In this document: piece by piece, positions 2,407-52,257 of the stretch | Layout: every line of letters starts with the position of its first letter | Numbering within the stretch: position 1 is the stretch's first letter | Origin: Phapecoctavirus 536P1 | DNA: 64,000 bases | Sequence record: OZ035728.1 | Direction: 5' to 3' (one strand) | Notes under the pieces: generated by a model | Seen by the model: only the letters and a program-made list of their open reading frames with translations | Told to the model about the DNA's origin: nothing | The model's database searches: none | Program-made: the position numbers and the translations under genes

Positions 2407-4431
2407 ATGAATTTAACAAGACCTAATAGTGCGATAGCCGATCTGGTAGAAGCTACTTATCGAAAACGTCGCAGCTTTGAGGCAGGTTTTACATTACGTA
2501 ATTCCCGTGAAGTTTTGCTGTTAGCAGCAGAAGGGAATTATTACCAATGGAAAGGAACTTTTCCTAAAGTAGTTCCAGCAAACTCTACGCCAGCCACCAC
2601 AGGTGGTATTTCTTCCCTTGCATGGCAAAGTGTTGGGACCGCTGATGATATAGCAATTATCAATGCCAAGTTTACGGCAATGCAGCAACAGATTGATGAT
2701 CTGTCGGAAACAATACCTGAAGCTGGTAAATCGGCTTATCAGATCGCACTTGATAATGGTTTTGTTGGAACAGAAGCACAATGGCTTGCTTCTTTGAAAG
2801 GGGACACTGGTGCTCAACTTAATATTAAAGGATCATTAGCAAGCACTAGTGAACTACCATCCACAGGTAACGTTGCAGGGGATGGTTATATCGTAGGTGA
2901 TGTAATCTACGCTTGGGATGGTTCTGTTTGGAAACTTATTTCTTCTCTTGGACCAGAAGGGAAATCAGCTTATGAGGTATGGTTGGCAGATGGTAATACA
3001 GGATCTGTTTATGATTTTCTTACCTCTATAAAAGGTGATAAAGGTGATGTTGGTCCTACAGGGCCACAGGGAGCACCTGGTGTTAACGCCAACGGTTTTG
3101 ATTATCGTGGGGATTTGCCTTCTACAAGTAACTTACCACAACCTAACTCTGAAAACGTAAGCCAAGCTTATTCTATCAATGGTAATCTTTATGTCTCTAA
3201 CGGGACAGCTTGGGTCAACATGGGTAATATTGTTGGTCCTCAAGGTCCACAAGGTGAGGCAGGTAAAGACGGTCTTGATGGAACAGATGGAGATGAAGGG
3301 AAATCTGCATATCAAAGTTGGCTGGATGCTGGTAATGAAGGGACAGAAGTAGATTTTATTGCCTCACTTAAAGGTCCAAAAGGAGACAAGGGTGATCAAG
3401 GAGAGCGAGGTCCACAAGGTGAACTAGGTCCACAAGGACCAGTGGGTGCAACAGGATCAGGCTTAGAGATTATCGGGGTTCTGAACAGTGAAGCTGAACT
3501 TCCTCCTACTGGAGAAGTAGGCGATGCATATAAAATTAATAATGATTTGTATGTTTGGGTTCAAGATGCTACGGAATGGATGAATGTTGGCAGTCTTGGA
3601 GGAACATCAATTACAGCTAAAGGTCATGTTCCGAACAGTGAAGCTCTCCCTGTTTACAATAACTATGGCGATGCCTACTTAACTGAAGACACCAGTAATC
3701 TTTACATCTATACCTACGATCAAGACACCAATTCCGCATCTTTTGTTGACATGGGAAGTATTAAAGGCGACAAAGGTGAAAAAGGGGATAAAGGAGATAA
3801 GGGTGATCCTGGAACAAACGGAACCAACGGTACTGATGGAACCAACGGTAAGGACGGCGCACAGTGGTTTGTAGCAACAACTAATCCAGTCGCAGGTGAT
3901 GGTGTTATCAATGATTACGCTTTCAATACTACCACTGGAGCAGTGTTTAAGAAAACAGATTCTTCTGCATGGACACTTATAGGAACTCTTCCTAGTATAC
4001 CAGAAGCACCTCAAGACGGCTTGACGTATGGTCGTTCTGATGGGAACTGGATCGAAATATCAGGATCAGATCCTACAGAAGCTATAACACCAACTAGAGT
4101 TACAGCAGGTTTCATGGAACTTGAAACAACTACTGCCAACTCTGGAGCATCTTGGACTCCTTCTGGAACTTCCAATATGTATGTTGTTACAGTAACTGAC
4201 GCTCTGACAGTTGGAGCATGGCCTGGTGTCACTGGATCTACAAAACCTAAAGCATTTTCAGCAATGATTTATTTGATTCAAGATACAACGGGACACACGG
4301 TTACACTAGATGCGTCTTATGGAGCACTGAATGATACAGAAATAGCAACTACTGCTAACGCAGTAACAATTTTGCAATTAACGTATCCTGGTGTGGGTAA
4401 TATCGTGGACATGGTTGTTGTAACACGATAA
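2407..4431 (+). CDS. tail fibre protein with collagen-like G-X-Y repeats
   Basis: 674 aa; runs such as GDKGDVGPTGPQGAPG, GPKGDKGDQGERGPQGELGPQGPVG, GDKGEKGDKGDKGDPGTNGTNGTDG; SD AGGAGAG upstream of ATG. Confidence 0.75.
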   Translation: MNLTRPNSAIADLVEATYRKRRSFEAGFTLRNSREVLLLAAEGNYYQWKGTFPKVVPANSTPATTGGISSLAWQSVGTADDIAIINAKFTAMQQQIDDLSETIPEAGKSAYQIALDNGFVGTEAQWLASLKGDTGAQLNIKGSLASTSELPSTGNVAGDGYIVGDVIYAWDGSVWKLISSLGPEGKSAYEVWLADGNTGSVYDFLTSIKGDKGDVGPTGPQGAPGVNANGFDYRGDLPSTSNLPQPNSENVSQAYSINGNLYVSNGTAWVNMGNIVGPQGPQGEAGKDGLDGTDGDEGKSAYQSWLDAGNEGTEVDFIASLKGPKGDKGDQGERGPQGELGPQGPVGATGSGLEIIGVLNSEAELPPTGEVGDAYKINNDLYVWVQDATEWMNVGSLGGTSITAKGHVPNSEALPVYNNYGDAYLTEDTSNLYIYTYDQDTNSASFVDMGSIKGDKGEKGDKGDKGDPGTNGTNGTDGTNGKDGAQWFVATTNPVAGDGVINDYAFNTTTGAVFKKTDSSAWTLIGTLPSIPEAPQDGLTYGRSDGNWIEISGSDPTEAITPTRVTAGFMELETTTANSGASWTPSGTSNMYVVTVTDALTVGAWPGVTGSTKPKAFSAMIYLIQDTTGHTVTLDASYGALNDTEIATTANAVTILQLTYPGVGNIVDMVVVTR

Positions 4432-4472: not shown

Positions 4473-7145
4473 ATGTTTCCAATTCCAATATTTACTATTA
4501 TGACCAGCACTGGTGTCGTTCCTCTGCCAGCAGGTATTGTTAAAAAAGTAATTACTTTAGATTACCCAGATAATGCTGGTAATTCTAACAGTAGTTTAGC
4601 AATTTTGCTTAATGATGGTAGATTGTTTACTCAAGGCGCAAACCTCTTTGGTGAGATTGCAGATGGAACTCGTAGTGCACGATTCAATAATTTCCACTTA
4701 GCTTCTACTGTAGTAGCGGATGTGTTTACCGCAGATCGTTGTTTTGTTATTAAAACTAACAGTGGGGGATGGCAATATTCAGGATTGACAGCAGGGTTGG
4801 TAGGATCTATAGCAGCAGGTGGTACGGATGCATGTGTAACTACTTGGACCAGCTTTCCATCTGTAATAACAGGGACTATTTCTTTAGCCAATCTTAAAGA
4901 GGTTAAAGGAGGGTATAACAATACTCTCTGGTTAATGAATAGCGGTGTTCTTTATGGATCGGGTCAAAACACAGTAGGCAGTTTAGGTGCAAGCACTACT
5001 AACGAAGTTTCTACTCCTCGTCAGATAACAAGCGCAGCAGTTGCTTTTGATGCAGGTTACAACCAATGCTCTTATGTCAACAATGTGGGAACCTTGCGTG
5101 TTTGTGGAGCTAGTAAAGGTTTAGCAGGTAATAATAACACAACAACCGCTTTTGTCAATGCCAAGATATCCACTACTGAAACAGTGTATGTCAAAGATTA
5201 CATCAATACAGTTTCCCAGACAATAGTTGTAGGAGATACCTCCGGTGGTACGGGTACGGTAAACTACTTGTATGTTAGGTCTAATACAGAAACAACCTAC
5301 ACTAAACTGGATACCTTTGCAGCAGGTTTCTCAACATGGAAGTTTCCACCAAGCCGCCACTCTTTTTTCGTTGGTATTAATAATTCCTTGTGGGCTATTG
5401 GTAAGAACTATACGGCAAACTTAGGTTTGGGGTATGATTCTGCGAGCGGAGATCCACTTCAAGTGGGAAAACCAGTTAAACCTGAAGGAGTGGGTTCCTG
5501 GGATATAAACAAGCTCACAAGCGTTCATACGCTGAATATGGATGTTACTAACCAATTAGGTTATCAAGGAACCTTTTTCGTTTATAATGGAGATATGTAT
5601 TATTCCGGTATTTGGAAAGATGGGAAAGCCTCGTATCTGTTCAATAGTGGTCTAAACTATAATAAATTCACACCAATAGCAAGCTCCGTGATTACGGGTG
5701 ATATTCTGGCAACTGGCTTAACTACAGATTCTTTAGGAATTTGTATTGTAGGTGGAACTAAACAGTTGACACATTCTGTTAGCCCAGAAGGAGGTAAACT
5801 TTTCAATATTAAATACACTTCTTCTGCCCCTGCAAACATGACAATATCATCTACTGGTTTAATGACTTTCCATGCAGAAGGTGGTTTTGATGCAGGTATG
5901 ACAGCCTTAAACGCTGAAGGAACAACTTTATCAGATACCTCTGGAGGATATGCTTCAACATTGAGTGTTTACACCCCTAGCTTATCTGCGATGGATGTAG
6001 GAACAACACAAACAATGGTAGCAGAAATAACGCCAACAGGAGCAGCAAGCTTACCTGGTATGGTTGTTGAGTATACAACTACAGATCCTAATGTTGCTAC
6101 AGTAGATCCTACAACTGGTGTAATAACTGGTGTTGGTGATGGTGGTTGTAGAATTGGTTGCACAGCTACGTATCAAGGTGTTGTTACCGCTTCTGATAGT
6201 TCTTATTTAACGGTGAATGCTGTTGCGGGAAAGGAGTTAGCTCCATCTCCGAGTAGTAGCTTAACGGTTCTAAACGGATATTTCAACCACTCGGCAGATG
6301 GGGCAATTACATTCCCAATTTTATCGGGTACTGTCACACCAGCTAACTTTGTAGTTAAGGTGGATGACGTTGTAATACCTTCAAATAAAGTAATATTTAG
6401 AAATAAAGCTTTCTCTACAGTGGATAGTTATCCAGCAGGAGAATATAGACTGGCTATTGAATTTGCAAGTGCTTCAGTAGTGAATAGTGTTGATGTGTCT
6501 ATGGAAGCAAATCCAGATCTTTTAGAATTATGGGGCGGCAACAGAATTGGTTATTCTACAAGCCCAGCCTCACAATTCTTAAAAGGTTGTGCTAACTTAA
6601 GACGAATAACTTCTGATTGTTTTAGTAACACATCTTACACCGGAACATCTATAAGTGGTATCTTCTCTGGCTGTACAAGTTTGACAGCTATCCCTGAAGG
6701 ATTATTCAGTGATGCTTTATTTCCTTCAATGACAACAATGTCAAGCACGTTTGAAGGCTGTACATCTTTAACATCTATTCCTTCAGATTTATTTAAGAAT
6801 CTATCAAAAGTTACAAGATATTCTTACACCTTTAAAGATTGCACCTCTCTTGCAGAAGTTCCAGCAGGAATGTTTGATAATATTCCAACGAAAGTGACCT
6901 CCTTAACAGCTACATTCCAAGGTTGTTTAGCACTTACAGATTTTAATAAAATCTTTAATGACAATCCAGGGTTAACTGTTTGTGGTAAACGTGGAGCATT
7001 ATCTTCTTTCTTTAGTGGATGCACAAATCTTACAGGAACAGGAACAACATTAACAAATACATTAGGCGGAGTAGCTAATAGTTACCTATTCAGGTATTGC
7101 ACAAAACTTTCTGATTATAACAACATTCCTTCGGGTTATAAATAA
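4473..7145 (+). CDS. tail fibre / receptor-binding protein with Ig-like (Big_2-type) domain and C-terminal BspA-type leucine-rich repeats
   Basis: 890 aa; Ig-like segment (TTDPNVATVDPTTGVITGVGDGG) and repeated GCTSLTxIP units near C-terminus; SD GGAGGG upstream. Confidence 0.6.
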   Translation: MFPIPIFTIMTSTGVVPLPAGIVKKVITLDYPDNAGNSNSSLAILLNDGRLFTQGANLFGEIADGTRSARFNNFHLASTVVADVFTADRCFVIKTNSGGWQYSGLTAGLVGSIAAGGTDACVTTWTSFPSVITGTISLANLKEVKGGYNNTLWLMNSGVLYGSGQNTVGSLGASTTNEVSTPRQITSAAVAFDAGYNQCSYVNNVGTLRVCGASKGLAGNNNTTTAFVNAKISTTETVYVKDYINTVSQTIVVGDTSGGTGTVNYLYVRSNTETTYTKLDTFAAGFSTWKFPPSRHSFFVGINNSLWAIGKNYTANLGLGYDSASGDPLQVGKPVKPEGVGSWDINKLTSVHTLNMDVTNQLGYQGTFFVYNGDMYYSGIWKDGKASYLFNSGLNYNKFTPIASSVITGDILATGLTTDSLGICIVGGTKQLTHSVSPEGGKLFNIKYTSSAPANMTISSTGLMTFHAEGGFDAGMTALNAEGTTLSDTSGGYASTLSVYTPSLSAMDVGTTQTMVAEITPTGAASLPGMVVEYTTTDPNVATVDPTTGVITGVGDGGCRIGCTATYQGVVTASDSSYLTVNAVAGKELAPSPSSSLTVLNGYFNHSADGAITFPILSGTVTPANFVVKVDDVVIPSNKVIFRNKAFSTVDSYPAGEYRLAIEFASASVVNSVDVSMEANPDLLELWGGNRIGYSTSPASQFLKGCANLRRITSDCFSNTSYTGTSISGIFSGCTSLTAIPEGLFSDALFPSMTTMSSTFEGCTSLTSIPSDLFKNLSKVTRYSYTFKDCTSLAEVPAGMFDNIPTKVTSLTATFQGCLALTDFNKIFNDNPGLTVCGKRGALSSFFSGCTNLTGTGTTLTNTLGGVANSYLFRYCTKLSDYNNIPSGYK

Positions 7146-7147
7146 GA

Positions 7148-7174
7148 AAAGGAGCCATTTGGCTCCTTTCTTTT
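7148..7174 (+). terminator. intrinsic terminator, probably bidirectional (ends fibre operon; faces end of minus-strand block)
   Basis: AAAGGAGCC-ATTT-GGCTCCTTT hairpin with TTCTTTTATT tail. Confidence 0.7.
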
Positions 7175-7209
7175 ATTCAGCGTTCAACCTCACACACTTG
7201 AAACAAACC

Positions 7210-8142
7210 TTAGAAGCAATGCAGGAAGTTTCGACCATATTGCAGTCCAATAGGAGCAAATGGAATATCATCGTCGAAGTCCATTGGAGGTTCTTCTTGA
7301 TTACTTGGAGTTGGTTCTGGTTGTGGTTCAGGCTTCTTAACTTCTTTCTTCTCTTCTTTCTTAGGTTGTTCTGCGGAACCACGAATGGCAGCAGCAACTT
7401 TATCAGACAGAGCCAGAACTTTACGAGCAGAATCAATCAGATCTTCTACAGAGACAGTCTTAATGGTATGGTCTTTACAAGCATTGAGAATAGCGTGACC
7501 AACAGATGCCCCAAGATCATAATCATTAATATCAACGCCACGAGATTCAGCAATTTCCGATTTCAGCGTGACAGTTGCAGATTGAACAACCCCAGCGATA
7601 TCGAAAGCATCGCCTTTAACACCATTACGAATCAGTTCCAGTGCACCATTTACTGCGTGACCAGTTTCCAGACCTACAGTATCACGTTTTTTATAGGGTT
7701 GCTTAGGAGCAGCATCGTTGGAACCCTTATTGCCAGAAGCTTTGTTAGACTTCTGAACACCATCGGTAGACAATACTGTAATACGAGATTTTTTAGTATT
7801 GTAGTAAGTTTTACCGCCTTTATTGTCAACGCGATCAATATCAATACTTACTTCTACACCTTTTTCAATAGTGATCCAGTTATCACCTTCTTTGACTTGC
7901 AGGTTTTCATAACCCTCTTTCAGTTCAATGTCACCAAGAGAAATCCAAACACCTTTCTCCTCTGGTTTAGCACCTTTCTCTTTCAGAACAAGAGAAGCTC
8001 GGTGAGTTGAAACAATCGTTTTTCCTTCCCAATGAAAAGTTTTAGGTTCAGCGAATTTATCCAGTTTAACGTAGTCTACGATACCAGTTGCATAAGTTAC
8101 GGTTTTGCCTTTACGATCAGTTTCAGTATTAATTACGGACAT
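7210..8142 (-). CDS. ssb: single-stranded DNA-binding protein with E. coli SSB-like acidic C-terminal tip (DFDDDIPF)
   Basis: 310 aa; C-terminus ...PMDFDDDIPF matches SSB C-terminal tip; Pro/Glu/Lys-rich linker; SD GAGGAG. Confidence 0.6.
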   Translation of the reverse strand: MSVINTETDRKGKTVTYATGIVDYVKLDKFAEPKTFHWEGKTIVSTHRASLVLKEKGAKPEEKGVWISLGDIELKEGYENLQVKEGDNWITIEKGVEVSIDIDRVDNKGGKTYYNTKKSRITVLSTDGVQKSNKASGNKGSNDAAPKQPYKKRDTVGLETGHAVNGALELIRNGVKGDAFDIAGVVQSATVTLKSEIAESRGVDINDYDLGASVGHAILNACKDHTIKTVSVEDLIDSARKVLALSDKVAAAIRGSAEQPKKEEKKEVKKPEPQPEPTPSNQEEPPMDFDDDIPFAPIGLQYGRNFLHCF

Positions 8143-8158
8143 TATTATCTCCTCTATA

Positions 8159-8551
8159 TTACATTAATTTTGCACAGAAAGAGCGGAGTCTTTCCATATC
8201 ATCTTGCTCTAACAGGTATTTACCTTTACCTATTCCAACTCCAATTTCACCGTTAGGGAAATGAACTATTTGCACTGGGAAACCTCCGAGTTTAATTGTG
8301 GCAGCTTTGCCTTCTTCGTCTATAACGTTTCGGATTGTATCTTGCAGTGAAATGAATTCTTTGTTTGTAACAGTGGTTTCAATTATTTCAGATGTTTCGA
8401 CACGAGCAGTTAGCTTCTTGTTTCCACCTTGAATAACCAAAATTTGAAAATAAAAAGAGTTGTCAAGACCTACAACATTTTTCTCAACTAGTGTCAAACT
8501 GGTATAGTTTCCATAAACAGTTTCAACAGCTATCTTAGAACGTTCAGTCAT
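8159..8551 (-). CDS. hypothetical protein
   Basis: 130-aa ORF in operon frame between ssb and nucleotidyltransferase; no motif recognised. Confidence 0.55.
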   Translation of the reverse strand: MTERSKIAVETVYGNYTSLTLVEKNVVGLDNSFYFQILVIQGGNKKLTARVETSEIIETTVTNKEFISLQDTIRNVIDEEGKAATIKLGGFPVQIVHFPNGEIGVGIGKGKYLLEQDDMERLRSFCAKLM

Positions 8552-8596
8552 TGAATGCTATCCTATCATAAAATGTTTAATATTGTCAAGCTTTAA

Positions 8597-9190
8597 TTAC
8601 CAAGGAATATCATCTTCTTCCAATCTGGTATCTACTTGAGGTGGACGTGGAACCTTAACCTCTTTCACAAAACGAAGATATGGGAAACGTGTAGCAATTT
8701 TAATAACATGTTTGGCATCTTCTCTAACATCTTTGTGCAAGAAGCAGATCCCTGTTTCCAAGGTTGTTTCAAAATCTTTAGAATAATAACAGTCCTTCCC
8801 ATCAAATGCAGCCTGGCAGATGGACAGATCGAACTCATTTAGAAAGGTTGTCATTACGCTTGGTTCCATAATCATAAGGTTGCAAAGCTGACCATCACGT
8901 TCAAACTCAAAAACGTGTTTAAGACCAGTAACACCTTCATAATTGTCAGAAGCCTCTTTGTTTCCTAGTTTACGAATATTGGTTCCCATTAAAGCAGATG
9001 CAATTAATCCTTGTATTTGTTCTTCAGTCCGATGTGCAGGAAGGGACGTATAGAAATCCAGATCACGTCCAGCAATATCAAGAATACGCCAATCACGAAC
9101 AGCACCGCCAGCCAAGACAGAATTAGGATCAGCGATCTTTAATACGGTAAGAATTTCTTTGGCAATATTGATTTGTTTTGATTTAGTCAT
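8597..9190 (-). CDS. minimal nucleotidyltransferase (Pol-beta superfamily, tRNA CCA-adding-enzyme head-like) with SSB-tip-like C-terminus
   Basis: 197 aa; motif LAGGAVRDW...DIAGRDLDF (G[SG]xVRD ... DxD); C-terminus ...LEEDDIPW resembles SSB tip. Confidence 0.55.
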   Translation of the reverse strand: MTKSKQINIAKEILTVLKIADPNSVLAGGAVRDWRILDIAGRDLDFYTSLPAHRTEEQIQGLIASALMGTNIRKLGNKEASDNYEGVTGLKHVFEFERDGQLCNLMIMEPSVMTTFLNEFDLSICQAAFDGKDCYYSKDFETTLETGICFLHKDVREDAKHVIKIATRFPYLRFVKEVKVPRPPQVDTRLEEDDIPW

Positions 9191-9778: not shown

Positions 9779-10357
9779 CTACCGAGTCCACTCCTTACGT
9801 TGTTCAATATGTTCAAGCATATCGTTATACAATGTTTTAAGATGTGGAACAACTCTTTGATCTTCTGTTTCAAAAAACTTTGTAAGCTGTTCTGCTTTAG
9901 CTTTCAACCAACAAAGATGTGCTTGGAGTTCCGTATCGAAACGACCGAGTGTTATGATACGTCCTCCGATTTTAATATGGGCCTTATACTTCTTACGATC
10001 CTTCTCATAATTACATCCTACCATTTGACCTGACTTCTTTCTGTAGGCTAAAAACTTATTAAGATTTCCAGAAATCATTAAGCAAGTATCAGGGGAGTAG
10101 ACTCCCCCTCCCATAAGATCCTTATCGAGTTCCGAGTTTTCCCAGTCGTCCCAAGTTTCCAACCAAGAGTAGAAGTTGGAAAACAGCTTCCACTCTTCAC
10201 AAACCGTCACTCCATGATAAACGACATCTCTTGCCTGTTGGCAAGATGAATAACACCTTCCCAACATTGCCATCCATTTCATATAAGCAGGGTGCATAAC
10301 CCCTTCAGGAGATCTTGCAGTAATGCTCCCATCAAAAACACCGTGACCATAAACCAT
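9779..10357 (-). CDS. HNH-family homing endonuclease-like protein with AP2-like DNA-binding domain
   Basis: 192 aa; YMKWMAMLGRCYSS...YHGVTVCEEWKLFSNF pattern typical of phage HNH_3 endonucleases; C-terminal KAHIKIGGRIITLGRFDTELQA resembles AP2; lies directly downstream of DNA polymerase. Confidence 0.5.
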   Translation of the reverse strand: MVYGHGVFDGSITARSPEGVMHPAYMKWMAMLGRCYSSCQQARDVVYHGVTVCEEWKLFSNFYSWLETWDDWENSELDKDLMGGGVYSPDTCLMISGNLNKFLAYRKKSGQMVGCNYEKDRKKYKAHIKIGGRIITLGRFDTELQAHLCWLKAKAEQLTKFFETEDQRVVPHLKTLYNDMLEHIEQRKEWTR

Positions 10358-10386: not shown

Positions 10387-13300
10387 CTAATGGCAACTGG
10401 CCCAGGAATTCCCTACATCATATCCAGCAGTAAGCTGAACATTAAGATTGTAAAATTCTCCAGCCTTAGTAACAGCTAAGGCAGCAAGTTCACCTGCCCG
10501 ACTATAGGCTGTAAACCATCCACCTTTGGGAGATTCATGAATGTTAGCCCAAATTTGCCCTGTCTCTTTTTCCTTATTATGCTTCCATTCTTCGACTTTA
10601 GCAAGGCATTCTTTATCAATTTTCTTTTGTTCTTCAGGATCGTCTACTTTCTTCCAACCTAATGATTCAGGTGAAAACCATTTAAATTCTACAAGGTTAC
10701 GAGAAACTTCAAGCTGGGCTTCATCGTGATATGCAATCATTTGTTGCACGAAATCTTTATTCTTCCAGTCATCTTTAAAGAAGTCAACACTTAGTCCTTC
10801 TTCTTCGATCATGTCGTCATAAATAACCATTGCACGTTTAGCACAGATAACCCCACCACTTTGGAACAGAGAGTTAAGAATCGCGTGAGCAGAACGAGTA
10901 GGAACCTTACGACCGTCAATACCCAAAACATATTGTTTACCAGTCTTAACCCAAAAGTCGTTTAAACGTTCTTTAAGACGCGCCAATGGGAATGCAGCTT
11001 CCCAGAAAGCATCAAACACCAATTGACCTGTAAACTTATCGCTACCAATTGTTTTAGCAACCTTGTCGGCTTGTGCACCATAGGTAATACCATACTTAAC
11101 AGATTTAGCAGGACTACGTTCAAATTTACGTCCAATAGTTTCAGTGATACGTTTTGCCATCATTGTGTGAACATCGTTAGGTTTCTCTAACAACAGAGCG
11201 TTACAATACTCGTGTGGCTCCGGCTCGTACCGCCAACAGTTTCCTGTGATGGTAATGCAGTCTTTCTGACGCATGACCCACGTACCAAGTTCTGTTTGTG
11301 GACACCAAACATCCTCTACACCCCACTCTTCAATAGTCAAACTTTGAACAGGAATGTGAGAGCGGTTAGTCAATGTTGCCACTTTTACTTTCTGCTCTTT
11401 TGTATTGAAAGCTACAGAGATATTGCCTCCATGCACCAGGTACGAGGCAGTTAAAGCTGCTTCAAAAAGTTCACCTGGGTTCTGCGCCCAACGCCAAACA
11501 GGTTTTTGTTTATGTTCATGCCAGTAACCATCTGCAATCAAGAAACCTTCCAAGAAAGCTACACGCTCGGCATGAGACATATTAACTACACGCTCTACCC
11601 ACGGAACATCCCATTTACCTTGTTGAACAGAAGTTAAACTATTTACCTGATCTTGTTCCATGTTAAATGGAGCATTACAAATAATATTATCTCCTGTGCA
11701 AAGCTCGGCAGTTGTTCTGACTTTAGGCACATAAGTATTCCCTTTACTACGGGTATTAACATACCAACGGTGATCTGCTGTTGCACGGTAAGTGTGTGAT
11801 TTCCCTTTAATCTCAAACGTCTTACTATTTTTATAGAAGACCTTACCTTTTACTTTAGTCCATTCTTTCATACCTGTTTCAGCATTGTACCCTAAAATCT
11901 CATCCCCTTCCTTCAGGTCGTGATATCCTACCCAACCTTTACGAGTCAAAGCTTGAGCATCCATCGGCACACAGTAATGCGACTCAATCTTTGCTTCCAA
12001 AGAGTCGAAGTCATAACCGATCTGGAAGTATTTAGGAACTTCTACACCAAACAAGTTACGCATCTCCCATCCAAACAAAGATGTGACACGAGGAATATTA
12101 GCTACAGATCTATGCTTCATACGAGAGGTTGCAGCATCACATGTAGCGGCTGGGGTAGGAATACGCCCATCAGCCCTTACTGCGGCTAAGAAACCTTTAT
12201 CGTATTCTTGATCTTCTTCATCTTCTTCCCAATCAGCACCGCCACCTAAAATAGAGTTCCTACGATGCTTATACGTTAAGTATTCTACAATCTGTGTAGC
12301 ATAAGGAAACTTCTCACCCAAAGCTTGCAGGTTAGGACAAATTTCTTTTTCCTGACCTTTGGTAAAACACGGGTTAGTCAATACTTTAAGACCGCGACCT
12401 TTACCTTTTGCTATACGCTCTTGAATCTTCCTTTCCAAGGTTTCCGGTGTGCACTCCAGATGATCACAACGATCCTGACAAAAATTAGAAGATAGAGTTT
12501 GCTCAACGTAAGCTCGAATACCTTTCTGAAGTTCTTCCTCGCTCTTTTTAATTTTGGTGCCAGATTTAAGCGTCAAGTCTTTATCTTTATATTCAGACGG
12601 TACCCAACCTAATCCTACAAGCCAGTTTTTAATATGGGTTGTATCGTTCAATGTTGCAGGGATATTAGGATCACATAGAGGCTCATCTGCTGCAACTGGC
12701 AGTTTCCACTCTTTCCCCAACATAACTAACCACCAATCGCCATCCCTCTCTTCCAAATGACCATCATGTTTCTTAGCAAAATTGATCATATGGTTAGTTG
12801 GCTCTAAGTTCTTTTTAATTTGCAACTTAGGTGGAATAAAAGCTTTAAGATAACCTTTTGTTGCTGGTTTAGGTGGCAAAATAGGCTCAACGAGTAAACG
12901 AAGACGCTCCATTTCTGCATCCAAAAAAGCAAGGTTCTCTTCTGCTTGTTTCATGTTAAAAGCAAACCCACGGTGTTCCTGGCGTGTAATAATGTCTGCT
13001 ACACGTTGTTCAAGTTCAAATGGACCTTCCCATTTATCATAATCACCCCATTCTTCCATAAGGTAATTATATACGCTCGTATTGGCTTTGTTGTCATAGA
13101 TACAGTAATAAAGCATATCCGCAGCAAAAGTCTTAAATCGATCTTCTTCTGGAATCTCTTTACGGAAATCTATTTTTACATCACCACCTGCTTTTCGAGA
13201 AAGTGCTGCCAAGCTATGTCCTGATTTGCCCTCAATCTTTCGATCTGGGTTTAACACTTTACTCAAAATCAAGGAGTCAATAAGTTTTACCTTATTTTTG

Positions 13301-13719
13301 CCCCACGTATTATATTTAACACTGTAATCTAATCCATAAAACAGTTTTGTAGCCAACCAGTCGTAGTTGATACCGTTGTGAGCCACAGCCATTTCAACCA
13401 GATATTCAGGCTTGTCTTTAAAATAACCTTCATGATTAATAAAATCTGGGAAATCTTTTAGTTGAAAATGTGTGTAATCTTGCGCCACATACTCTTTAAG
13501 AACATATGTGTATTTACCATCTGACTCTTCATAAGGACGCCCATCAAAGATGTATTTAGGGCCATCGTGGAAAGCTACTATTTCTCCTGTTTCATGGTTC
13601 TCTAAGACAATACAGTGCATTTGAAATGTGTCTTTGAGACGATAAGGACTAGCTAAATAATCAATAGTGTCATTATTCAACAATCCGTTTGCTTCAATAT
13701 CCCATGTAAACTTACTCAC
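10387..13719 (-). CDS. DNA polymerase, family A, with 3'-5' exonuclease domain, interrupted by an in-frame intein
   Basis: 1110 aa; exo motif WDIEANGL; pol motif A DFDSLEAKIESHY, motif B RSPAKSVKYGITYG, motif C YHDEAQLEV; GTG start with SD AGGAGG. Confidence 0.85.
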   Translation of the reverse strand: MSKFTWDIEANGLLNNDTIDYLASPYRLKDTFQMHCIVLENHETGEIVAFHDGPKYIFDGRPYEESDGKYTYVLKEYVAQDYTHFQLKDFPDFINHEGYFKDKPEYLVEMAVAHNGINYDWLATKLFYGLDYSVKYNTWGKNKVKLIDSLILSKVLNPDRKIEGKSGHSLAALSRKAGGDVKIDFRKEIPEEDRFKTFAADMLYYCIYDNKANTSVYNYLMEEWGDYDKWEGPFELEQRVADIITRQEHRGFAFNMKQAEENLAFLDAEMERLRLLVEPILPPKPATKGYLKAFIPPKLQIKKNLEPTNHMINFAKKHDGHLEERDGDWWLVMLGKEWKLPVAADEPLCDPNIPATLNDTTHIKNWLVGLGWVPSEYKDKDLTLKSGTKIKKSEEELQKGIRAYVEQTLSSNFCQDRCDHLECTPETLERKIQERIAKGKGRGLKVLTNPCFTKGQEKEICPNLQALGEKFPYATQIVEYLTYKHRRNSILGGGADWEEDEEDQEYDKGFLAAVRADGRIPTPAATCDAATSRMKHRSVANIPRVTSLFGWEMRNLFGVEVPKYFQIGYDFDSLEAKIESHYCVPMDAQALTRKGWVGYHDLKEGDEILGYNAETGMKEWTKVKGKVFYKNSKTFEIKGKSHTYRATADHRWYVNTRSKGNTYVPKVRTTAELCTGDNIICNAPFNMEQDQVNSLTSVQQGKWDVPWVERVVNMSHAERVAFLEGFLIADGYWHEHKQKPVWRWAQNPGELFEAALTASYLVHGGNISVAFNTKEQKVKVATLTNRSHIPVQSLTIEEWGVEDVWCPQTELGTWVMRQKDCITITGNCWRYEPEPHEYCNALLLEKPNDVHTMMAKRITETIGRKFERSPAKSVKYGITYGAQADKVAKTIGSDKFTGQLVFDAFWEAAFPLARLKERLNDFWVKTGKQYVLGIDGRKVPTRSAHAILNSLFQSGGVICAKRAMVIYDDMIEEEGLSVDFFKDDWKNKDFVQQMIAYHDEAQLEVSRNLVEFKWFSPESLGWKKVDDPEEQKKIDKECLAKVEEWKHNKEKETGQIWANIHESPKGGWFTAYSRAGELAALAVTKAGEFYNLNVQLTAGYDVGNSWASCH
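11239..11973 (-). mobile_element. intein with degenerate LAGLIDADG homing-endonuclease block inside DNA polymerase (residues about 583-827)
   Basis: 245-aa insertion directly after pol motif A; begins with Cys, ends ...ITITGN followed by Cys; internal block ERVAFLEGFLIADGY resembles LAGLIDADG; extein without insert about 865 aa. Confidence 0.6.
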
Positions 13720-30814: not shown

Positions 30815-31463
30815 TTACAATTTCTCCTCTTTTAAGTTTCTCTAGTAAGTCGTTAGGGTTCTTAATATGACAAAAGTTAAATCCTAAGTCAACACATTTT
30901 CCATCATATTCTTCACTATCGCCTACGTGCAACACTTCGTGCCCTAATAGAGGGATCGGAGAATACGTGAGCGTGCGAGCAAAGAATCGCGGGTCTGGTT
31001 TACAAAGTAAAGCTTCATCCGAGAAATGGGTGAACTCAAAACAATTCCAACTATCAAACTTACAAGCACGACGCAGGATATCCCCTGATATGAAGTTGGT
31101 GTTGCTCTTAATACTCAAATCATAACGCCCCGAAAGATACAGCAAGTACATCGGCAGATCTACGGCTACGTGTGGTGGAAACTTAAGGAACCACTGTTCA
31201 CACTCGAAACGAAGCTTTGCAGACTTCCAAGGCGTTATCCCAAGTTCAGAACCAAGTCTTTCCCAGGCGTATGCTGCACACTCGGCTTTGCCTTGAAGTG
31301 CTGCATTATCCAGTTCCTTTTTGATCTTTTTATAAGCTGCTCTTGCTTCCACTTCCGTAATATCTCCATATTTTGCGATAGTCCAGGCTCGCATGTCTGC
31401 GTAATTGGAGTTTGCTGTGATCAGTGTGTTCCATACATCAAAAGAGATATGTTTAATAGTCAT
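30807..31463 (-). CDS. HAD-superfamily hydrolase/phosphatase-like protein
   Basis: 218 aa; motif I-like ISFDVWNTLI and motif IV-like HVGDSEEYD. Confidence 0.5.
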   Translation of the reverse strand: MTIKHISFDVWNTLITANSNYADMRAWTIAKYGDITEVEARAAYKKIKKELDNAALQGKAECAAYAWERLGSELGITPWKSAKLRFECEQWFLKFPPHVAVDLPMYLLYLSGRYDLSIKSNTNFISGDILRRACKFDSWNCFEFTHFSDEALLCKPDPRFFARTLTYSPIPLLGHEVLHVGDSEEYDGKCVDLGFNFCHIKNPNDLLEKLKRGEIVNA

Positions 31464-31464
31464 A

Positions 31465-32070
31465 TTAAGCCCACCATGCGTCTAAGTTAAGATTACTGTC
31501 CACTACTACTTGTTCTATGTGGTAGCCTTTTATCTGTATCCCACTGTTCAAGAGCATATCATACGCTTCATTGAAACGCAACTTATCTTCTGCGGAATAT
31601 AAGCGAGCATTATAAAATCGGTAATCAATTTCTTCAGCATTAGAAGAAATACGGAAGAAGTTTGTTTCTACTTCGGGATCACTTGCTGAAGTCTTAATGT
31701 GAACTTCTCCATAATTTTCTTTACTTAGATCCATGAAAAGAACACAGGCGACATGTTTAAACATTCGTTCCAGTTTGTAACGAACAACATTGAAACCTGC
31801 ATTCTCAAGTTTTTCTACACACTGCAACATTAAAGTAGTGTCGAGATCGCTTTGATATTTTGTTAACATACGATCACGTTGAGATTTTGTATCCCGATGT
31901 AAATCAATTGTTGTGCATTTGGCACCAATAATCTTAGCTGCTTTCATCAACTCTTCAGAACTAACGTTAGATAAAGTAAGATGAAAATGGGCTTTCCACA
32001 CTTTTTTAGCAGGGACACCAAAAGATTTATCCCCGCTATTTGGCATGTTAACTACTACACTATGTTGCAT
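31465..32070 (-). CDS. hypothetical protein
   Basis: start at ATG after SD GAGGAG (track begins at adjacent GTG). Confidence 0.55.
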   Translation of the reverse strand: MQHSVVVNMPNSGDKSFGVPAKKVWKAHFHLTLSNVSSEELMKAAKIIGAKCTTIDLHRDTKSQRDRMLTKYQSDLDTTLMLQCVEKLENAGFNVVRYKLERMFKHVACVLFMDLSKENYGEVHIKTSASDPEVETNFFRISSNAEEIDYRFYNARLYSAEDKLRFNEAYDMLLNSGIQIKGYHIEQVVVDSNLNLDAWWA

Positions 32071-32085
32071 CACTTATCTCCTCAC

Positions 32086-32277
32086 TTAAAATGGAAGTCT
32101 TTGAAGTTCATCTCCTCCGATATCAAGTAATTTAGCAACATCTCGATCAGAAAGCAACTCTTTTCTTTGTAAAATATCCACAAGGGTTGCAAGAATGTCC
32201 TTAACGTCCCGATCACTGTTCTTCAAAAGTTCTCCTGCCGTCCCTACTCTATCTCCTACAGCAAAATATGTAACCAT
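32086..32277 (-). CDS. hypothetical small protein
   Basis: start at internal ATG with SD AGGAGG (track ORF extends to 32310). Confidence 0.45.
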   Translation of the reverse strand: MVTYFAVGDRVGTAGELLKNSDRDVKDILATLVDILQRKELLSDRDVAKLLDIGGDELQRLPF

Positions 32278-32290
32278 GAAACCTCCTAAG

Positions 32291-32761
32291 TTAATCTGAT
32301 TGCCAACCACTTGCCGTTTTGGTCCATAATCTTTGATTATCTGACCCTCTGAAAGGTTTTGTAGTTGGATTGTTTATTTCATACTTTCCGTCTACAATAA
32401 TGTCAACAAGATTTTTAATATACAAAGGCACTTCCTCAAAAGTATATCCTGTATACACCATTATATCTTTGCTTGACCCATAAACGTCTCTAACCTTTTC
32501 TATAAGGTTTTTAACATTGTAAATATTCTGCGGATCTAATGGCTCTCCTCCTAAAATTGTTAAACCTTTTACAAACGGTCTTGACAAATCTTTTAAAACT
32601 TGCTCTACATTTTCGTGAGTAAATGGTTTCCCATAAGAATAAGACCAGGCTTTTTGGTTAAAACAGCCACGACAACCGTGGCTACAACCACTAACCCAGA
32701 GGGAGCACCTAACTCCCTCGCCATTAATAAGATCTACAGGTTCATATCCTGCAAAATTCAA
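32291..32761 (-). CDS. nrdG: anaerobic ribonucleotide reductase activating protein (radical SAM)
   Basis: 156 aa; YEPVDLINGEGVRCSLWVSGCSHGCRGCFN matches NrdG N-terminus with CxxxCxxC cluster; TTG start overlapping nrdD stop. Confidence 0.85.
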   Translation of the reverse strand: MNFAGYEPVDLINGEGVRCSLWVSGCSHGCRGCFNQKAWSYSYGKPFTHENVEQVLKDLSRPFVKGLTILGGEPLDPQNIYNVKNLIEKVRDVYGSSKDIMVYTGYTFEEVPLYIKNLVDIIVDGKYEINNPTTKPFRGSDNQRLWTKTASGWQSD

Positions 32762-33729
32762 AGATGTTTCTCCCTTTGCAAAACTTCCTGCATTTTACCT
32801 TTGTTGTAAGGGCGTGAATTAGGGGCAGAAAGATACCCTGACACACGTCTAACTACAGAAATAGTTTCTTCTTCATGGTTGCCACAATCAGGACACTCAA
32901 ACCCTTTAGCCGTTGCCTTAAATTCTCCATGAAAACCACACTTAAAGCATTGATCCACGGGCTGATTAATACCAAAATAGTGAATATGTTCATAAGCGTA
33001 GTCTACTAAAGTCTCCAAAGCTTCTAAGTTATTCTTTAAGTTTGGTGTTTCTACGTAACTTATGTTACCACCATTACTAATCTGTGCAAAACCTGCTTCA
33101 TAATCCCATTTTTCAAAAGGATTTGTTACCAACCATACAGGTTGATGAAAAGAGTTAGTAAGATAGTCTCTTTCTACCAAACCTGGGTATTTTTCATTTA
33201 AAGCTGTTGCAAACTTATAGCACAAGGATTCTGCTGGAGTTCCATAGAGACTAAACGCCAGCTTAGATCGCTCTTTAAACACAGCACACACATCTTTCAT
33301 ATGTTGCAGAATGTTTTTACCAAGTTCCTTTTTATCTTTTTCTTCTGGATAAAGGATTTCCAAAGCTTCAGCAAGACCTACATAACCAATACTAATAGAA
33401 GCATAACCACCTTCAAACAAAACACCAATTTCATCATTGGCATTTAAACGCGCTAAAGCCCCTTCCATGAAAAGAATAGGGTTTTCAGATGCTTTGGTAT
33501 GTCTGATACGGTTTACACGTAGCATGTGAGCATCGTAGGCTATCTCCATATGTTTATTAAGAAGATCGGTGAAAGATTCTCCTTTACTTCTCGCTTCCGC
33601 AGCAATCAGAGGCAAGTTGATAGAAACTACTCCAAGGTTGAATCGTCCATCATATTTTTCTCCTTGCTCTGTTGCATAGTATGACAAGAAACTTCTACAC
33701 ATTATGTTCAAAGTGGCTCGCAAGGCCAC
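32758..33729 (-). CDS. nrdD: anaerobic ribonucleoside-triphosphate reductase, C-terminal part (downstream exon/fragment)
   Basis: Zn-ribbon CFKCG...CPDCG and glycyl-radical motif RRVSGYL at C-terminus; first residues of the ORF are probably insertion-derived. Confidence 0.75.
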   Translation of the reverse strand: MALRATLNIMCRSFLSYYATEQGEKYDGRFNLGVVSINLPLIAAEARSKGESFTDLLNKHMEIAYDAHMLRVNRIRHTKASENPILFMEGALARLNANDEIGVLFEGGYASISIGYVGLAEALEILYPEEKDKKELGKNILQHMKDVCAVFKERSKLAFSLYGTPAESLCYKFATALNEKYPGLVERDYLTNSFHQPVWLVTNPFEKWDYEAGFAQISNGGNISYVETPNLKNNLEALETLVDYAYEHIHYFGINQPVDQCFKCGFHGEFKATAKGFECPDCGNHEEETISVVRRVSGYLSAPNSRPYNKGKMQEVLQREKHL

Positions 33730-49473: not shown

Positions 49474-50012
49474 GAATAACTGATGAATATGTATTCTTCT
49501 TTTCACATAAAGATGTGTTTAGTAATTGGTATATTGCACCCTTTACAGAAACCGAACCAGGTTACAATCAGACATTTAATTGTGTCGAACAATACATGAT
49601 GTGGCGTAAAGCTTTGCTTTTTAATGACCACAACACGGCACAGGCTATTCTGACTCATAGTTTGATACGAAAAGATGAGAAGATCCAAGCTTATTACAAA
49701 CGTATGGGTAGGGCAGTGTCGGATTTTGATAACAACGTATGGGAAGAGAACCGTGAGCGTATTGTTATGCGAGGTTTATGTTTGAAATATGTACAGAATC
49801 CAGATTTGTATGCAGACTTACACCTTTACCAATACAAAACGTTTGTTGAAGCAAGCCCTTACGATAAGGTTTACGGAATTGGAATGGGGATGTATGAACC
49901 AGGGGTGCTAAACCCTGCTACCTGGAAAGGGCAGAATCTTTTAGGCAAATATCATAATAAACTGATCGAAATACTTTTCCCAGACAAAATACCGCAAAGA
50001 CGATATTTGTGA
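49470..50012 (+). CDS. NADAR-domain protein (YbiA-like N-glycosidase family)
   Basis: 180 aa; FFFSHKDVFSNWY and EQYMMWRKALLF blocks parallel E. coli YbiA FYS...FSNF and EHYFQAxKF; SD AGGAGG. Confidence 0.65.
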   Translation: MRITDEYVFFFSHKDVFSNWYIAPFTETEPGYNQTFNCVEQYMMWRKALLFNDHNTAQAILTHSLIRKDEKIQAYYKRMGRAVSDFDNNVWEENRERIVMRGLCLKYVQNPDLYADLHLYQYKTFVEASPYDKVYGIGMGMYEPGVLNPATWKGQNLLGKYHNKLIEILFPDKIPQRRYL

Positions 50013-50066
50013 TATTTTAACTTTTTTCATTTTTAGAACAAAGGTGTCACTTTGTAGCACAGAAAT

Positions 50067-50103
50067 AAGGCTCCTACAGCACCGTAGAGAGCCTATTATT
50101 TTG
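50067..50103 (+). terminator. probable intrinsic terminator after NADAR gene
   Basis: imperfect GGCTCCTAC...GTAGAGAGCC hairpin followed by TATTATTTTG. Confidence 0.45.
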
Positions 50104-50255
50104 TCCTATACAAACACTTGTCTTTTTCAGTTGGCATTGCTAGGATTCGATCTGGGTGGGTTCCTGAAGGTCTACCAATAAGATTAAAGGTTATCTCAAA
50201 TTCCCACTACCTGTTATCTCAAAAATCCCTCAAATTATTTAAACTTTTTAAGAAT

Positions 50256-50302
50256 TTACAAAAGTGAAAGTTGAAAACCAAAATTTAAAGTTTAGGAAAA
50301 TT
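50256..50302. repeat. 47-bp A-rich direct repeat, copy 1
   Basis: TTACAAAAGTGAAAGTTGAAAACCAAAATTTAAAGTTTAGGAAAATT; about 42/47 identical to copy 2. Confidence 0.6.
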
Positions 50303-50393
50303 ATCTTAAAATGTTAGATACAAAACAAAACTCAAAAGTCAAGGAAAATTTTAAAAATTTTGCGCGCCCACAGTATTTAAAGTTTTTTTGCTT

Positions 50394-50440
50394 TTACAAA
50401 AATGAAAGTACAAAAGCAAAATTTAAAGTTTACAAAAATT
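50394..50440. repeat. 47-bp A-rich direct repeat, copy 2
   Basis: TTACAAAAATGAAAGTACAAAAGCAAAATTTAAAGTTTACAAAAATT. Confidence 0.6.
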
Positions 50441-50455
50441 TTTATGCAGGTGAGA

Positions 50456-50472
50456 ATGAGAAGAGTTCTCAT
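50456..50472. promoter_or_regulatory. perfect palindrome ATGAGAAGAGTTCTCAT (operator-like)
   Basis: 7-bp arms around GAG; shares TTCTCAT half-site with Fur-box-like sites. Confidence 0.4.
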
Positions 50473-50480
50473 GTGGAAAT

Positions 50481-50503
50481 GCAAATGATAATGATTCGCA
50501 TTT
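50481..50503. promoter_or_regulatory. Fur-box-like site (weaker)
   Basis: AAATGATAATGATTCGCATTT; shares TGATAAT core with Fur consensus GATAATGATAATCATTATC. Confidence 0.3.
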
Positions 50504-50540
50504 AAGTTTATAAATGAGATTGATTCTTATTCAATAAGGT

Positions 50541-50569
50541 AAATGATAATCATTCTCATTTAGAGAATG
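50541..50569. promoter_or_regulatory. Fur-box-like palindromic operator
   Basis: TGATAATCATTCTC matches Fur consensus core TGATAATCATTATC at 13/14; continues into palindrome TCATTCTCATTTAGAGAATGA. Confidence 0.45.
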
Positions 50570-50819
50570 ACGCGCAGGGGTGGTGTTTATCTCGCGCTCC
50601 CGTGTCCCCTCGCCATGTAATAAGAATAACAGATCCAGCCAGGAAAGCAAGCGATTATTTTTATCTTTACATTTCTTTACAAATTTATTTTAGACGAGCT
50701 ACCGGCGATCAACCTTCCAACCAGCGCCCTGGTATGTTAGCCCCGCCTTTACGCCGTGGGGTGGCGCTTCCTCTTCTGTATGTAAAACAGTATAAGCCCG
50801 ATCCCTGGGCTTGTCAAGA

Positions 50820-51086
50820 TTATTTTTTGTTTTCTTGCCAGGATAGGACACCTAACCAAAAATGCATATCGCCCCGCGCCCCTGGTGGGATCTTGCTTTC
50901 CCCGCCGCCACTGCAAGCCCATAAATAACCATCAGCGAACGGATCAAAGTTTTCTATTTCTTCCACCTTATGATCGCCCAGGTTGAGAACTGTTTCAGCC
51001 TTTAAGCCCGTTGCGCTTGCTACCTGGTGCACCGTGCCGCCTTGCCAGCCCAATGAGTGCATAAGGTGTAATGTAGTATTTGTCAT
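50820..51086 (-). CDS. hypothetical protein in GC-rich island
   Basis: 88-aa ORF with GC-rich codon usage unlike surrounding genes; weak SD. Confidence 0.35.
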   Translation of the reverse strand: MTNTTLHLMHSLGWQGGTVHQVASATGLKAETVLNLGDHKVEEIENFDPFADGYLWACSGGGESKIPPGARGDMHFWLGVLSWQENKK

Positions 51087-51195
51087 GGTGTCGCCCTTTC
51101 TTTGTTGTGCGCCCTGGTTGGCGCGGTAGAAAGATGATAGCCTTTTCCTTTATATATAGCAAGCAAAAAGAAAATAAAAAAGATTGAAAAAGTGG

Positions 51196-51224
51196 TTGAC
51201 GTTCCTCACCTGGTAGCGTAGTAT
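51196..51224 (+). promoter_or_regulatory. sigma70-like promoter (TTGACG-N17-TAGTAT) heading the cassette array
   Basis: hexamers about 135 nt upstream of ATG 51360. Confidence 0.45.
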
Positions 51225-51359
51225 TCATCTTGTCGAGGGGGGCGAGGCACAACGACAATAAACAACAGGAGGGCGCAATGTAGGACGGGCAAAGGTGAGG
51301 ATCTCCATAATCCACCGTCAACCAACAAAAAACATCATTCATCACCTGGAGTTAAAATC

Positions 51360-51557
51360 ATGGCAACATTGCACATTGTGGCGAAAGCTGGACAAATCAA
51401 CGTAATAGTAAACGGTTTTACTGAGTTCAGTCATCCCCAGGATGATCATGAAACGGTTTTATCTTTCATTGATTCCCTGTTAGAAATGGGAGTCATTACA
51501 GAAGACCAGCACGCTACAAAATGCAAGCGCGTTAATCAAATTGCAGGAATAGAATAA
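51360..51557 (+). CDS. hypothetical small protein
   Basis: 65 aa; first ORF of array. Confidence 0.55.
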   Translation: MATLHIVAKAGQINVIVNGFTEFSHPQDDHETVLSFIDSLLEMGVITEDQHATKCKRVNQIAGIE

Positions 51558-51563
51558 AAACTA

Positions 51564-51626
51564 TTGACAACAAACAACAACCTGATAAGATGTGTCACAT
51601 AGGGCGGCGGAATGGTCCAGCCGCTC
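51564..51626 (+). promoter_or_regulatory. promoter-hairpin cassette A
   Basis: TTGACA-N16-TGaTAAGAT then GGGCGGCGGAATGGTCCAGCCGCTC stem-loop starting about 3 nt after predicted +1. Confidence 0.6.
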
Positions 51627-51649
51627 ACAACAGAAGAGAGATTATAATC

Positions 51650-51922
51650 ATGGCATCATATAGCGCAACAATGATCGTAGCTGGCACCACTGGTAAACCT
51701 ATGAGCGGTGGCGGATCTTTCGCAAATATCAACATTGACGGGCGTTTATCCCTGGACGCAGCGATCACCGTGGCGCGGGAAACATTTAAGAAAGAATGTA
51801 AATTCAATAAACAAGATTATCTCGGTTTTGCTATTGAAAAAACCGCGCGCTTTGTTGATTATAAAAGCCCGAAAATGGTTGATACTACACTAAAAGCGCA
51901 AGATGTAGCGTTTTTGCTTTAA
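51650..51922 (+). CDS. hypothetical small protein
   Basis: 90 aa from ATG after purine-rich leader AGAAGAGAG. Confidence 0.6.
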   Translation: MASYSATMIVAGTTGKPMSGGGSFANINIDGRLSLDAAITVARETFKKECKFNKQDYLGFAIEKTARFVDYKSPKMVDTTLKAQDVAFLL

Positions 51923-51925
51923 GGC

Positions 51926-52256: not shown

Positions 52257-52257
52257 T

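Follow-up and report, generated by a model that had tools for sequence, protein, structure and literature searches.

The window analysed here is a 64,000-nucleotide stretch of Phapecoctavirus 536P1 (sequence record OZ035728.1), and our subject is a gene on its minus strand that encodes a nucleotidyltransferase (NTase) of 197 amino acids (aa) with a C-terminus resembling the tip of bacterial SSB (single-stranded DNA-binding protein). Between positions 7000 and 9500 the sequence shows 98–99% identity to myophages that infect E. coli and belong to the Phapecoctavirus genus (phAPEC8-like, Stephanstirmvirinae), vB_EcoM_DE16 and Mt1B1_P17 being among the matching records. In minus-strand order, the locus comprises the genes for a Pol A DNA polymerase and an HNH homing endonuclease, three small open reading frames (ORFs), the NTase gene, a gene for a 130-aa protein and a gene for an SSB-like protein (Table 1). 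The start of the NTase gene overlaps the ORF before it by 8 nt, and a gap of 45 nt separates it from the next ORF. The SSB-tip-like tail of the NTase is a real and non-random feature, and the protein is best described as a minimal NTase of a phage replication module that has acquired an address tail of the SSB-tip class.

The original prediction for this locus had attributed to the NTase the GGAVRD...DxD signature and the head of the CCA-adding enzymes without their body domains, together with a C-terminus reading LEEDDIPW. All of these elements are present: the signature is found as LAGGAVRDWRILDIAGRDLDFY (G28 G29 ... D43 L D45), the ORF ends in ...RLEEDDIPW, and the protein combines the head fold and motif A of class II enzymes (CCA-adding enzymes and poly(A) polymerases) with the loss of the body and tail domains. 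As an enzyme, it is of a previously annotated but uncharacterised kind and not a new discovery, GenBank records already labelling the gene nucleotidyltransferase or 'putative tRNA nucleotidyl transferase / poly(A) polymerase'. Two PHROG profiles, both labelled 'nucleotidyltransferase', match it (phrog_10174 with E 6.5e-63 and phrog_1614 with E 5e-11), and PF26128 is the precomputed assignment for its homologues P0009, P0015, P0017 and others. The PolyA_pol family PF01743 stays below threshold on the NTase itself (13.9 bits against a gathering cut-off of 23, E 0.07) and matches 26 of 56 family members at E ≤ 0.01, the best with E 4.3e-5.

Structure prediction, proposed earlier as a check, yielded an AF2 model built on 56 homologues (mean pLDDT 86.6, pTM 0.81) that matches the head domain, in the N-terminal part of class II enzymes, and leaves the C-terminal tail disordered; order stops near residue 176, and pLDDT is 61 for residues 181–190 and below 50 for residues 191–197. 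Each of the 35 highest-ranking Foldseek matches of this model in the PDB is either a class II CCA-adding enzyme or a bacterial poly(A) polymerase (E between 1e-5 and 5e-3, TMq 0.40–0.58), with 6QY6, 1MIV, 1OU5, 3AQK and 3H39 as the best structural matches and with alignments covering about 166–209 columns of targets of 342–517 residues. The length of the NTase is approximately half of that of the CCA-adding enzymes (344–445 residues in the PDB matches). In a profile search against the PDB, helix 1 and the GGAVRD...DxD segment align with CCA-adding enzymes (E 0.0025), and the similarity in sequence goes no further; phmmer against the PDB returned only noise for the NTase, and NCBIfam produced no more than a match of 12.6 bits to TIGR02692. 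Of the class II architecture, the NTase retains just the catalytic head together with a portion of the neck.

Residues G28, G29, R32, W34, D43 and D45 are invariant in the 56 homologues, whose mean column identity is 33%, and this invariance argues for a functional site binding nucleotide and metal. In class II enzymes motif B (RRD) serves for ribose selection, while motif D (EDxxR) is the amino-acid template that selects the base. No conserved RRD or EDxxR column is apparent in the 56-homologue sequence alignment; the segment of the NTase closest to the motif B pattern is NEFDLSICQA, where the family consensus reads FxxSICQA, and alignment of the family to E. coli Cca by hhalign is limited to 40 columns of motif A only. 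Compared with the PF01743 enzymes, the NTase shares the Pol-beta-type head, the N-terminal helix and the GGxVRD-x9-DxD form of motif A; unlike them, it is half the size, lacks body and tail, does not conserve RRD and EDxxR, scores below threshold, is encoded in a DNA-replication module and bears an SSB-type tail. Since several defining features fail despite the class II head fold and motif A, we do not class it as a CCA-adding enzyme. An MNT-type (HEPN/MNT antitoxin) or MenT-type toxin assignment was considered and rejected, MenT1 appearing only at Foldseek rank 44 (E 0.02, TMq 0.26); neither a HEPN nor an antitoxin gene was found beside the NTase among its window neighbours by ORF, Pfam and PHROG analysis.

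These observations bear on the suggestion that the enzyme acts in tRNA 3'-end (CCA) repair or maturation, repair having been named as a possibility in the original prediction; a minimal head would rebuild damaged CCA ends of tRNAs of the host or the phage, for example against tRNA-targeting defences. The solved folds nearest to the NTase belong to CCA-adding enzymes and its motif A matches theirs, several records give it the name quoted above, the phage lineage has 11 tRNA genes, and jumbo phages are known to possess CCA-adding enzymes (PMC7824862). The domains that bind and measure tRNA are, however, missing from this short protein, as are the motifs B and D. The window was found to be free of tRNA genes; 11 are annotated in Mt1B1_P17, a near-identical phage (two flagged as pseudo; ARAGORN recovers 10), clustered about 40 kb away from the NTase gene (31210–33132 of our locus L010, 94.2–96.1 kb of the record). 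The CCA is genomically encoded directly after each of the 11, so tRNA maturation in this phage does not depend on CCA synthesis, and a Cca enzyme is available from the host. Moreover, the neighbours of the family are replication genes and not RNA ligase or kinase genes, and nothing in the neighbourhood of the NTase points to RNA repair. Given the missing motifs (B and D) and tRNA-measuring body, the CCA encoded in the tRNA genes and the replication-gene context, a role in tRNA repair is distinctly unlikely, and the name 'tRNA nucleotidyltransferase / poly(A) polymerase' given to the gene in databases is probably misleading.

The tail behaves differently from the sequence that precedes it. All ten NTase relatives of 59–98% identity finish with the pentapeptide DDIPW, replaced in one of them by DSFPW, while the 10–15 residues ahead of the tip differ among these ten in both sequence and length. 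The NTase of Citrobacter phage Tr1, with only 36% core identity, has a longer basic linker and ends in ...SKPKDIPW, and the homologue P0018, found in another genomic context, ends in ...SNDFPW; tips in separate branches of the family read NDFPW, PDDIPW, NDIPW, DDGIPF, KPIPF and ESIPY. The 45-nt gap before the next ORF shows that conservation of the tip is not due to an overlapping gene. Conservation of the tip with a varying linker and no overlapping gene is what characterises a functional linear motif at a C-terminus, although the tail is a lineage-specific addition, seen in the Phapecoctavirus lineage and a few others, and not a constant of the family. Our literature searches on an NTase with an SSB-like tail, and on the NTase gene in Phapecoctavirus, yielded no relevant paper.

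The resemblance to the SSB tip might in principle be functionally meaningless, the C-terminus of an otherwise ordinary accessory NTase being due to chance or peculiar to its lineage. A tip ending in proline and an aromatic residue is carried by just 16 of 200 family members, and the syntenic relatives in phi92, muut and loci L014–L022 lack an IP-aromatic tip, as such an explanation would predict. On the other hand, the tip is kept in Tr1 in spite of the distance of the core and the different linker, it has been gained or retained repeatedly in distant branches, and an acidic-[ILVFM]P-aromatic motif occurs in only two of the 391 window ORFs of at least 40 aa, namely the NTase and the SSB-like protein, with a true C-terminal position only in the NTase. 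We thus regard a meaningless resemblance as very unlikely. Other proteins with an IP-type tail were found neither in the window nor in 100 kb of Mt1B1_P17 (positions 50,001–62,999 and the last 1.2 kb excluded); the acidic, aromatic-ended ORFs without the IP motif in the window and Mt1B1_P17 are the ribonucleotide reductase small subunit (...DDEELDF) and two others.

A scan of IMG/VR for D-D-I-P-W followed by a stop codon, with the tails trimmed before clustering, produced at least 120 matches (loci L094–L213). Among the matches listed, 111 of 120 DDIPW-stops end ORFs of at least 70 aa, and the proteins so ended fall into at least 28 unrelated clusters. Canonical PF00436 SSBs ending in DDDIPW are among them (18 members, one with E 6e-37), along with gp2.5-like SSBs (phrog_112) and SSBs of another type (phrog_9002), so that three structural SSB classes overall bear this terminus. 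Non-SSB proteins in the same set of listed matches include a Toprim+DnaB primase-helicase similar to T7 gp4, a superfamily 2 (SF2) helicase, an AAA_5 ATPase, a deoxynucleoside monophosphate (dNMP) kinase, a protein resembling gp34 of Pam3 and numerous proteins without a known function; one further DDIPW-ended family of about 200 aa and at least 25 members has no PHROG or Pfam match. Judging from the DDDIPW end of canonical PF00436 SSBs, a terminal Trp belongs to the natural variation of the SSB tip, and SSB-type tips on non-SSB enzymes of replication or nucleotide metabolism are common in phages. A shared tail type is seen, for instance, on the single viral contig L086, which carries an NTase homologue and on which a DnaB-like helicase (positions 3062–3904) ends in ...DDRVPF and a gp2.5-like SSB (6199–6750) in ...DEDVPF, a pair of T7 style.

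The tail of T7 gp4 resembles that of gp2.5 and binds the polymerase. The acidic tail of T7 gp2.5 itself contacts other replisome proteins (PMC10359462). The phage studied here is similar in that acidic, aromatic-ended tails of like kind occur within one phage on an SSB-type protein and on a replication protein other than an SSB; unlike in T7, the second tailed protein is a nucleotidyltransferase and the motif is of the bacterial IP[FW] type, T7 tails ending in ...DF. In E. coli the SSB tip, defined as DDDIPF (PMC5872125), recruits at least 17 partners (PMC10018359). With the E. coli SSB C-terminus (MDFDDDIPF) the NTase shares a disordered linker, acidic residues, the I-P-aromatic sequence and a free carboxylate at the extreme C-terminus, while it differs in having a terminal Trp instead of Phe and a shorter, E-rich acidic run (LEEDDIPW), and in that the tip sits on an enzyme and not on an OB fold.

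The spread of DDIPW also bears on the idea that the tail is an intramolecular regulator which recruits nothing, either an acidic pseudo-substrate folding onto the active-site cleft of its own protein or an element of oligomerisation, much as the tails of gp2.5 and SSB act on the DNA-binding surfaces of their own proteins. A precedent is offered by T7 gp2.5, whose acidic tail competes with single-stranded DNA for the protein's own binding surface and stabilises dimers (PMC10359462). The core of the NTase, however, is not basic, and what is conserved is D-[IF]-P-W-COOH and not net charge, as the ...SKPKDIPW end of Tr1 illustrates. The presence of DDIPW at the ends of so many unrelated clusters is a better fit to a common external receptor, and we attach very little probability to a purely intramolecular role.

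According to the original prediction, the NTase tail echoes the tip DFDDDIPF of an SSB encoded two genes away. The sequence DFDDDIPF is indeed present there, but it is not terminal, occupying residues 288–295 of a 310-aa protein and being followed by a further 15 residues, APIGLQYGRNFLHCF. The protein, which contains ...EEPPMDFDDDIPF with the last 12 motif residues equal to the E. coli SSB tip, consists of an OB-like beta domain (residues 1–125), a four-helix domain (156–253), a disordered linker, the segment EPPMDFDDDIPF (284–295), identical to the E. coli SSB tip, and the 15-aa extension. Because the motif is internal in the SSB-like protein, the NTase is the only protein of this phage with a true acidic-IP-aromatic C-terminus. 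In sister phages such as Schickermooser the SSB-like protein stops at ...DDDIPF, and among 120 homologues 73 end at the tip and 26 carry an extension of 14–17 aa. The 3' end of the SSB-like gene of Tr1 overlaps by 29 nt the start of a 164-aa ORF with an HNH motif (…CPLHH…; the product begins MVETSCTASKVCFKCG...) that is annotated just as hypothetical, and an identical 29-nt overlap joins the SSB-like gene of rV5 to the beginning of a gene annotated as endonuclease VII. All that is left of this downstream gene in the window is a 21-codon remnant, MVETSCIASKVCFKCVRLNAE*, read from 7238 to 7173, which matches the N-terminus of the intact Tr1 gene. In view of these overlaps and of the remnant, the extension looks like a by-product of the insertion of a mobile endonuclease that later decayed. 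The phages in which the SSB tip is apparently buried by such an insertion (26 of the 120 homologues) are nonetheless viable. A correlation of the NTase tail with the form of the SSB-like tail was looked for and rejected: tail-positive NTases accompany both forms, and the tail-negative muut has the extended one.

The gene for this neighbour is annotated 'single-stranded DNA-binding protein' in the records of relatives, and SSB in NC_052662. Its Pfam, NCBIfam and PDB profile matches cover the last 20–45 residues only, so in sequence the SSB label rests on the tail; the AF2 model (pLDDT 78) shows a beta domain weakly matching OB folds (Ta0387 OB, RPA OB domain, Stn1 and TEBP; probability 0.9–0.99, E 0.02–0.2). 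The name 'SSB-like' is therefore fitting and reasonable but unproven. The 130-aa protein encoded between this gene and the NTase gene has zero Pfam, NCBIfam or PDB matches and is inherited together with both neighbours in L003 and L012–L022; its position between them is constant, with 37–100% identity over 11 loci, and it could be a partner subunit of either the NTase or the SSB-like protein.

Table 1. Features of the NTase locus in OZ035728.1 (window coordinates).
Feature	Position	Strand	Evidence or remark
NTase: minimal, stand-alone, 197 aa, class II-like head (G28-G29, R32, D33, W34, D43, D45)	8597..9190	-	ORF, PHROG, AF2, Foldseek
C-terminal disordered linker and tip of the NTase, residues ~178-197, ...VPRPPQVDTRLEEDDIPW, with stop codon	8597..8659	-	pLDDT, conservation
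Conserved 130-aa protein between NTase and SSB-like gene	8159..8551	-	phrog_16560, unknown function
SSB-like protein, 310 aa	7210..8142	-	ORF, AF2, weak OB-fold matches
15-codon extension of the SSB-like gene with stop (7254->7210) overlapping a 21-codon HNH endonuclease remnant (7238->7173)	7173..7254	-	
Terminator-like hairpin, bidirectional; ends the minus-strand operon (NTase, 130-aa, SSB-like) and a plus-strand tail gene	7147..7170	.	

Two further features lie upstream of the NTase gene. The HNH homing endonuclease of 192 aa (9779–10357, minus strand; phrog_953, E 2e-68) lies between the polymerase gene and the small ORFs at a site where Mt1B1_P17 and Schickermooser lack it. The Pol A gene (10387–13719) contains a 245-aa intein-like insertion at residues 583–827 (window 11239–11973, minus strand), which begins with CVPMDAQ... 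and finishes with ...ITITGN, the next residue being Cys; the remaining 865 residues are 100% identical to the polymerase of Mt1B1_P17, which is intein-less. A Pfam search at E ≤ 0.001 recognised no Hint domain in the insertion.

The family of stand-alone NTases to which the protein belongs is phage-specific; it counts 1,034 representatives at E ≤ 1e-3, mostly of 170–230 aa, and is a widespread, uncharacterised part of phage replication modules. A fold search in BFVD gave 116 matches at E ≤ 1e-3, the best-scoring of which are mostly phage proteins of 137–230 aa; phiKMV-like podophages (LKD16, PP2, Ninurta), Caulobacter and Aeromonas phages and ORF223 of ICP1 are represented. We took a census of the genes within 4 kb of NTase homologues at 80 viral-contig loci, which correspond to 44 NTase clusters at a 60% identity threshold. 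A primase/helicase gene (phrog_239) is near the NTase in 24 of the 44 clusters, DNA polymerase A in 21 and another polymerase family in six more. Homing endonucleases of the HNH-AP2 type are neighbours in 13 clusters, and eight have a 5'-3' exonuclease nearby. Adjacency to an SSB gene was rejected as a family-wide rule, P0018 and P0011 lying among small early genes with no SSB-tailed neighbour; it is limited to Stephanstirmvirinae-like phages. In the two metagenomic phages that encode P0018 and P0011 (L005 and L007), the NTase homologue is the first gene of a rightward block of small early-type genes, which is followed by TerC and genes of the dTDP-rhamnose pathway and faces an RlaP-like gene as well as one for a UvrD-like helicase, a context unlike the replication-module setting seen elsewhere.

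The trio of NTase, 130-aa and SSB-like genes is kept in phi92/muut-like and other phages of about 150 kb, with 34–38% identity of the NTase as compared with 47–71% of the SSB-like protein. At L003 and L014–L022, the SSB-like protein is 63–71% identical where the NTase is just 37–38% identical. The low NTase identity within the trio reflects either very fast evolution or replacement by a distant paralogue at the same position.

The only relative of the NTase with a reported phenotype is Gp22 of Klebsiella phage fHe-Kpn01, a protein of 182 aa whose gene directly follows the DNA polymerase gene and which is reported to be toxic on expression in E. coli (PMC7291057). The relationship is remote (hhalign of the NTase family against Gp22: probability 70%, E 4e-5, 114 columns). 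Like Gp22 and the NTases of about 170–210 aa from LKD16, PP2, Ninurta and ICP1 (ORF223), the protein studied here is a stand-alone class II-like head of about 180–200 aa encoded beside DNA polymerase and primase-helicase genes. Gp22 differs from it in ending in ...IQEVRDAY, without an SSB-like tail, and in having a clear third carboxylate, D115, where the NTase family has N or Q in the hhalign register.

The toxicity of Gp22 is among the observations that may be quoted for a decoy function, in which the tail would competitively fill the pockets that receive the SSB tip on host proteins of repair and restart (ExoI, RecQ, PriA, RecG and others) and so disable these proteins, while the NTase domain would be a scaffold or modify the captured partner, e.g., by AMPylation. 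The NTase tip resembles that of the host SSB, and the rate of evolution of the NTase is far above that of its neighbours (37% against 63–71% identity), as is often the case for arms-race genes. Gp22, however, is toxic without having a tail, and its toxicity therefore does not need one, while the strong purifying selection on the catalytic motif throughout the family speaks against a pure scaffold. We consider the decoy function unlikely.

The reading that we favour instead is a tail that docks the enzyme, with the replication fork, and not tRNA, as its probable place of work. Recruitment of the NTase to the partners of SSB, as originally predicted, is a reasonable reading of a conserved disordered tip that the comparative evidence supports well, and it is strengthened by the occurrence of DDIPW at the ends of canonical SSBs, of a T7 gp4-like primase-helicase and of other replication proteins. 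The tail would be a short docking motif of the SSB-C-terminal-tip class, whose terminal aromatic residue and free carboxylate would insert into pockets recognising SSB tips, situated on host SSB-interacting proteins or, as in T7, on the phage polymerase or helicase. Docking would tether the NTase to single-stranded DNA organised by SSB at forks and recombination intermediates, and the tethered enzyme would transfer nucleotides without a template onto a 3' end (of an RNA primer or of DNA) or onto a fork-associated target. We see an even chance that the tail docks in SSB-tip pockets in this manner and so concentrates the NTase at SSB-coated DNA for template-independent nucleotidyl transfer. A more specific version, in which DDIPW in SSB-tip pockets brings tailing or nucleotidylation to 3' ends or proteins and thereby, for example, blocks host 3' exonucleases or restart factors, is put forward only tentatively.

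Several observations weigh against this docking model. The syntenic NTases of the phi92/muut type end in ...NNEEFKI and others in ...FMDEI or ...PDVFNF, and since close syntenic relatives do without the motif, the tail is not essential to the core function of the family. The NTase tails of the lineage end in Trp and the tips of the SSB-like proteins (120 homologues) in Phe, so that the receptor may differ from the SSB-tip pockets, or else Trp may tune the affinity. The core is mildly acidic, and its isoelectric point of 5.8 is atypical for a nucleic-acid binder. The third catalytic carboxylate does not appear clearly conserved: the candidate, E95, is invariant in the close NTase clade only, and a family-wide N/Q (N104) aligns opposite D115 of Gp22. 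Finally, the synteny of the NTase with replication genes could partly reflect common descent and not function.

In a wider and equally tentative view, acidic-IP[FW] tips would constitute a portable address label for the SSB hub, acquired by many unrelated phage enzymes such as NTases, dNMP kinases, AAA ATPases and helicases. Head-only NTases are frequent in phage replication modules, including those of phAPEC8-like, phi92-like and phiKMV-like phages, ICP1 and many uncultured phages, and the tail offers a direct experimental route, as the partner of the last eight residues would lead to the site of action of the enzyme. The presence of DDIPW-COOH on at least 28 unrelated clusters suggests that phage enzymes generally borrow the SSB tip as a means of reaching the fork or of competing with host SSB partners, which bears on the phage takeover of host DNA metabolism and on antibacterial design directed at the SSB tip.

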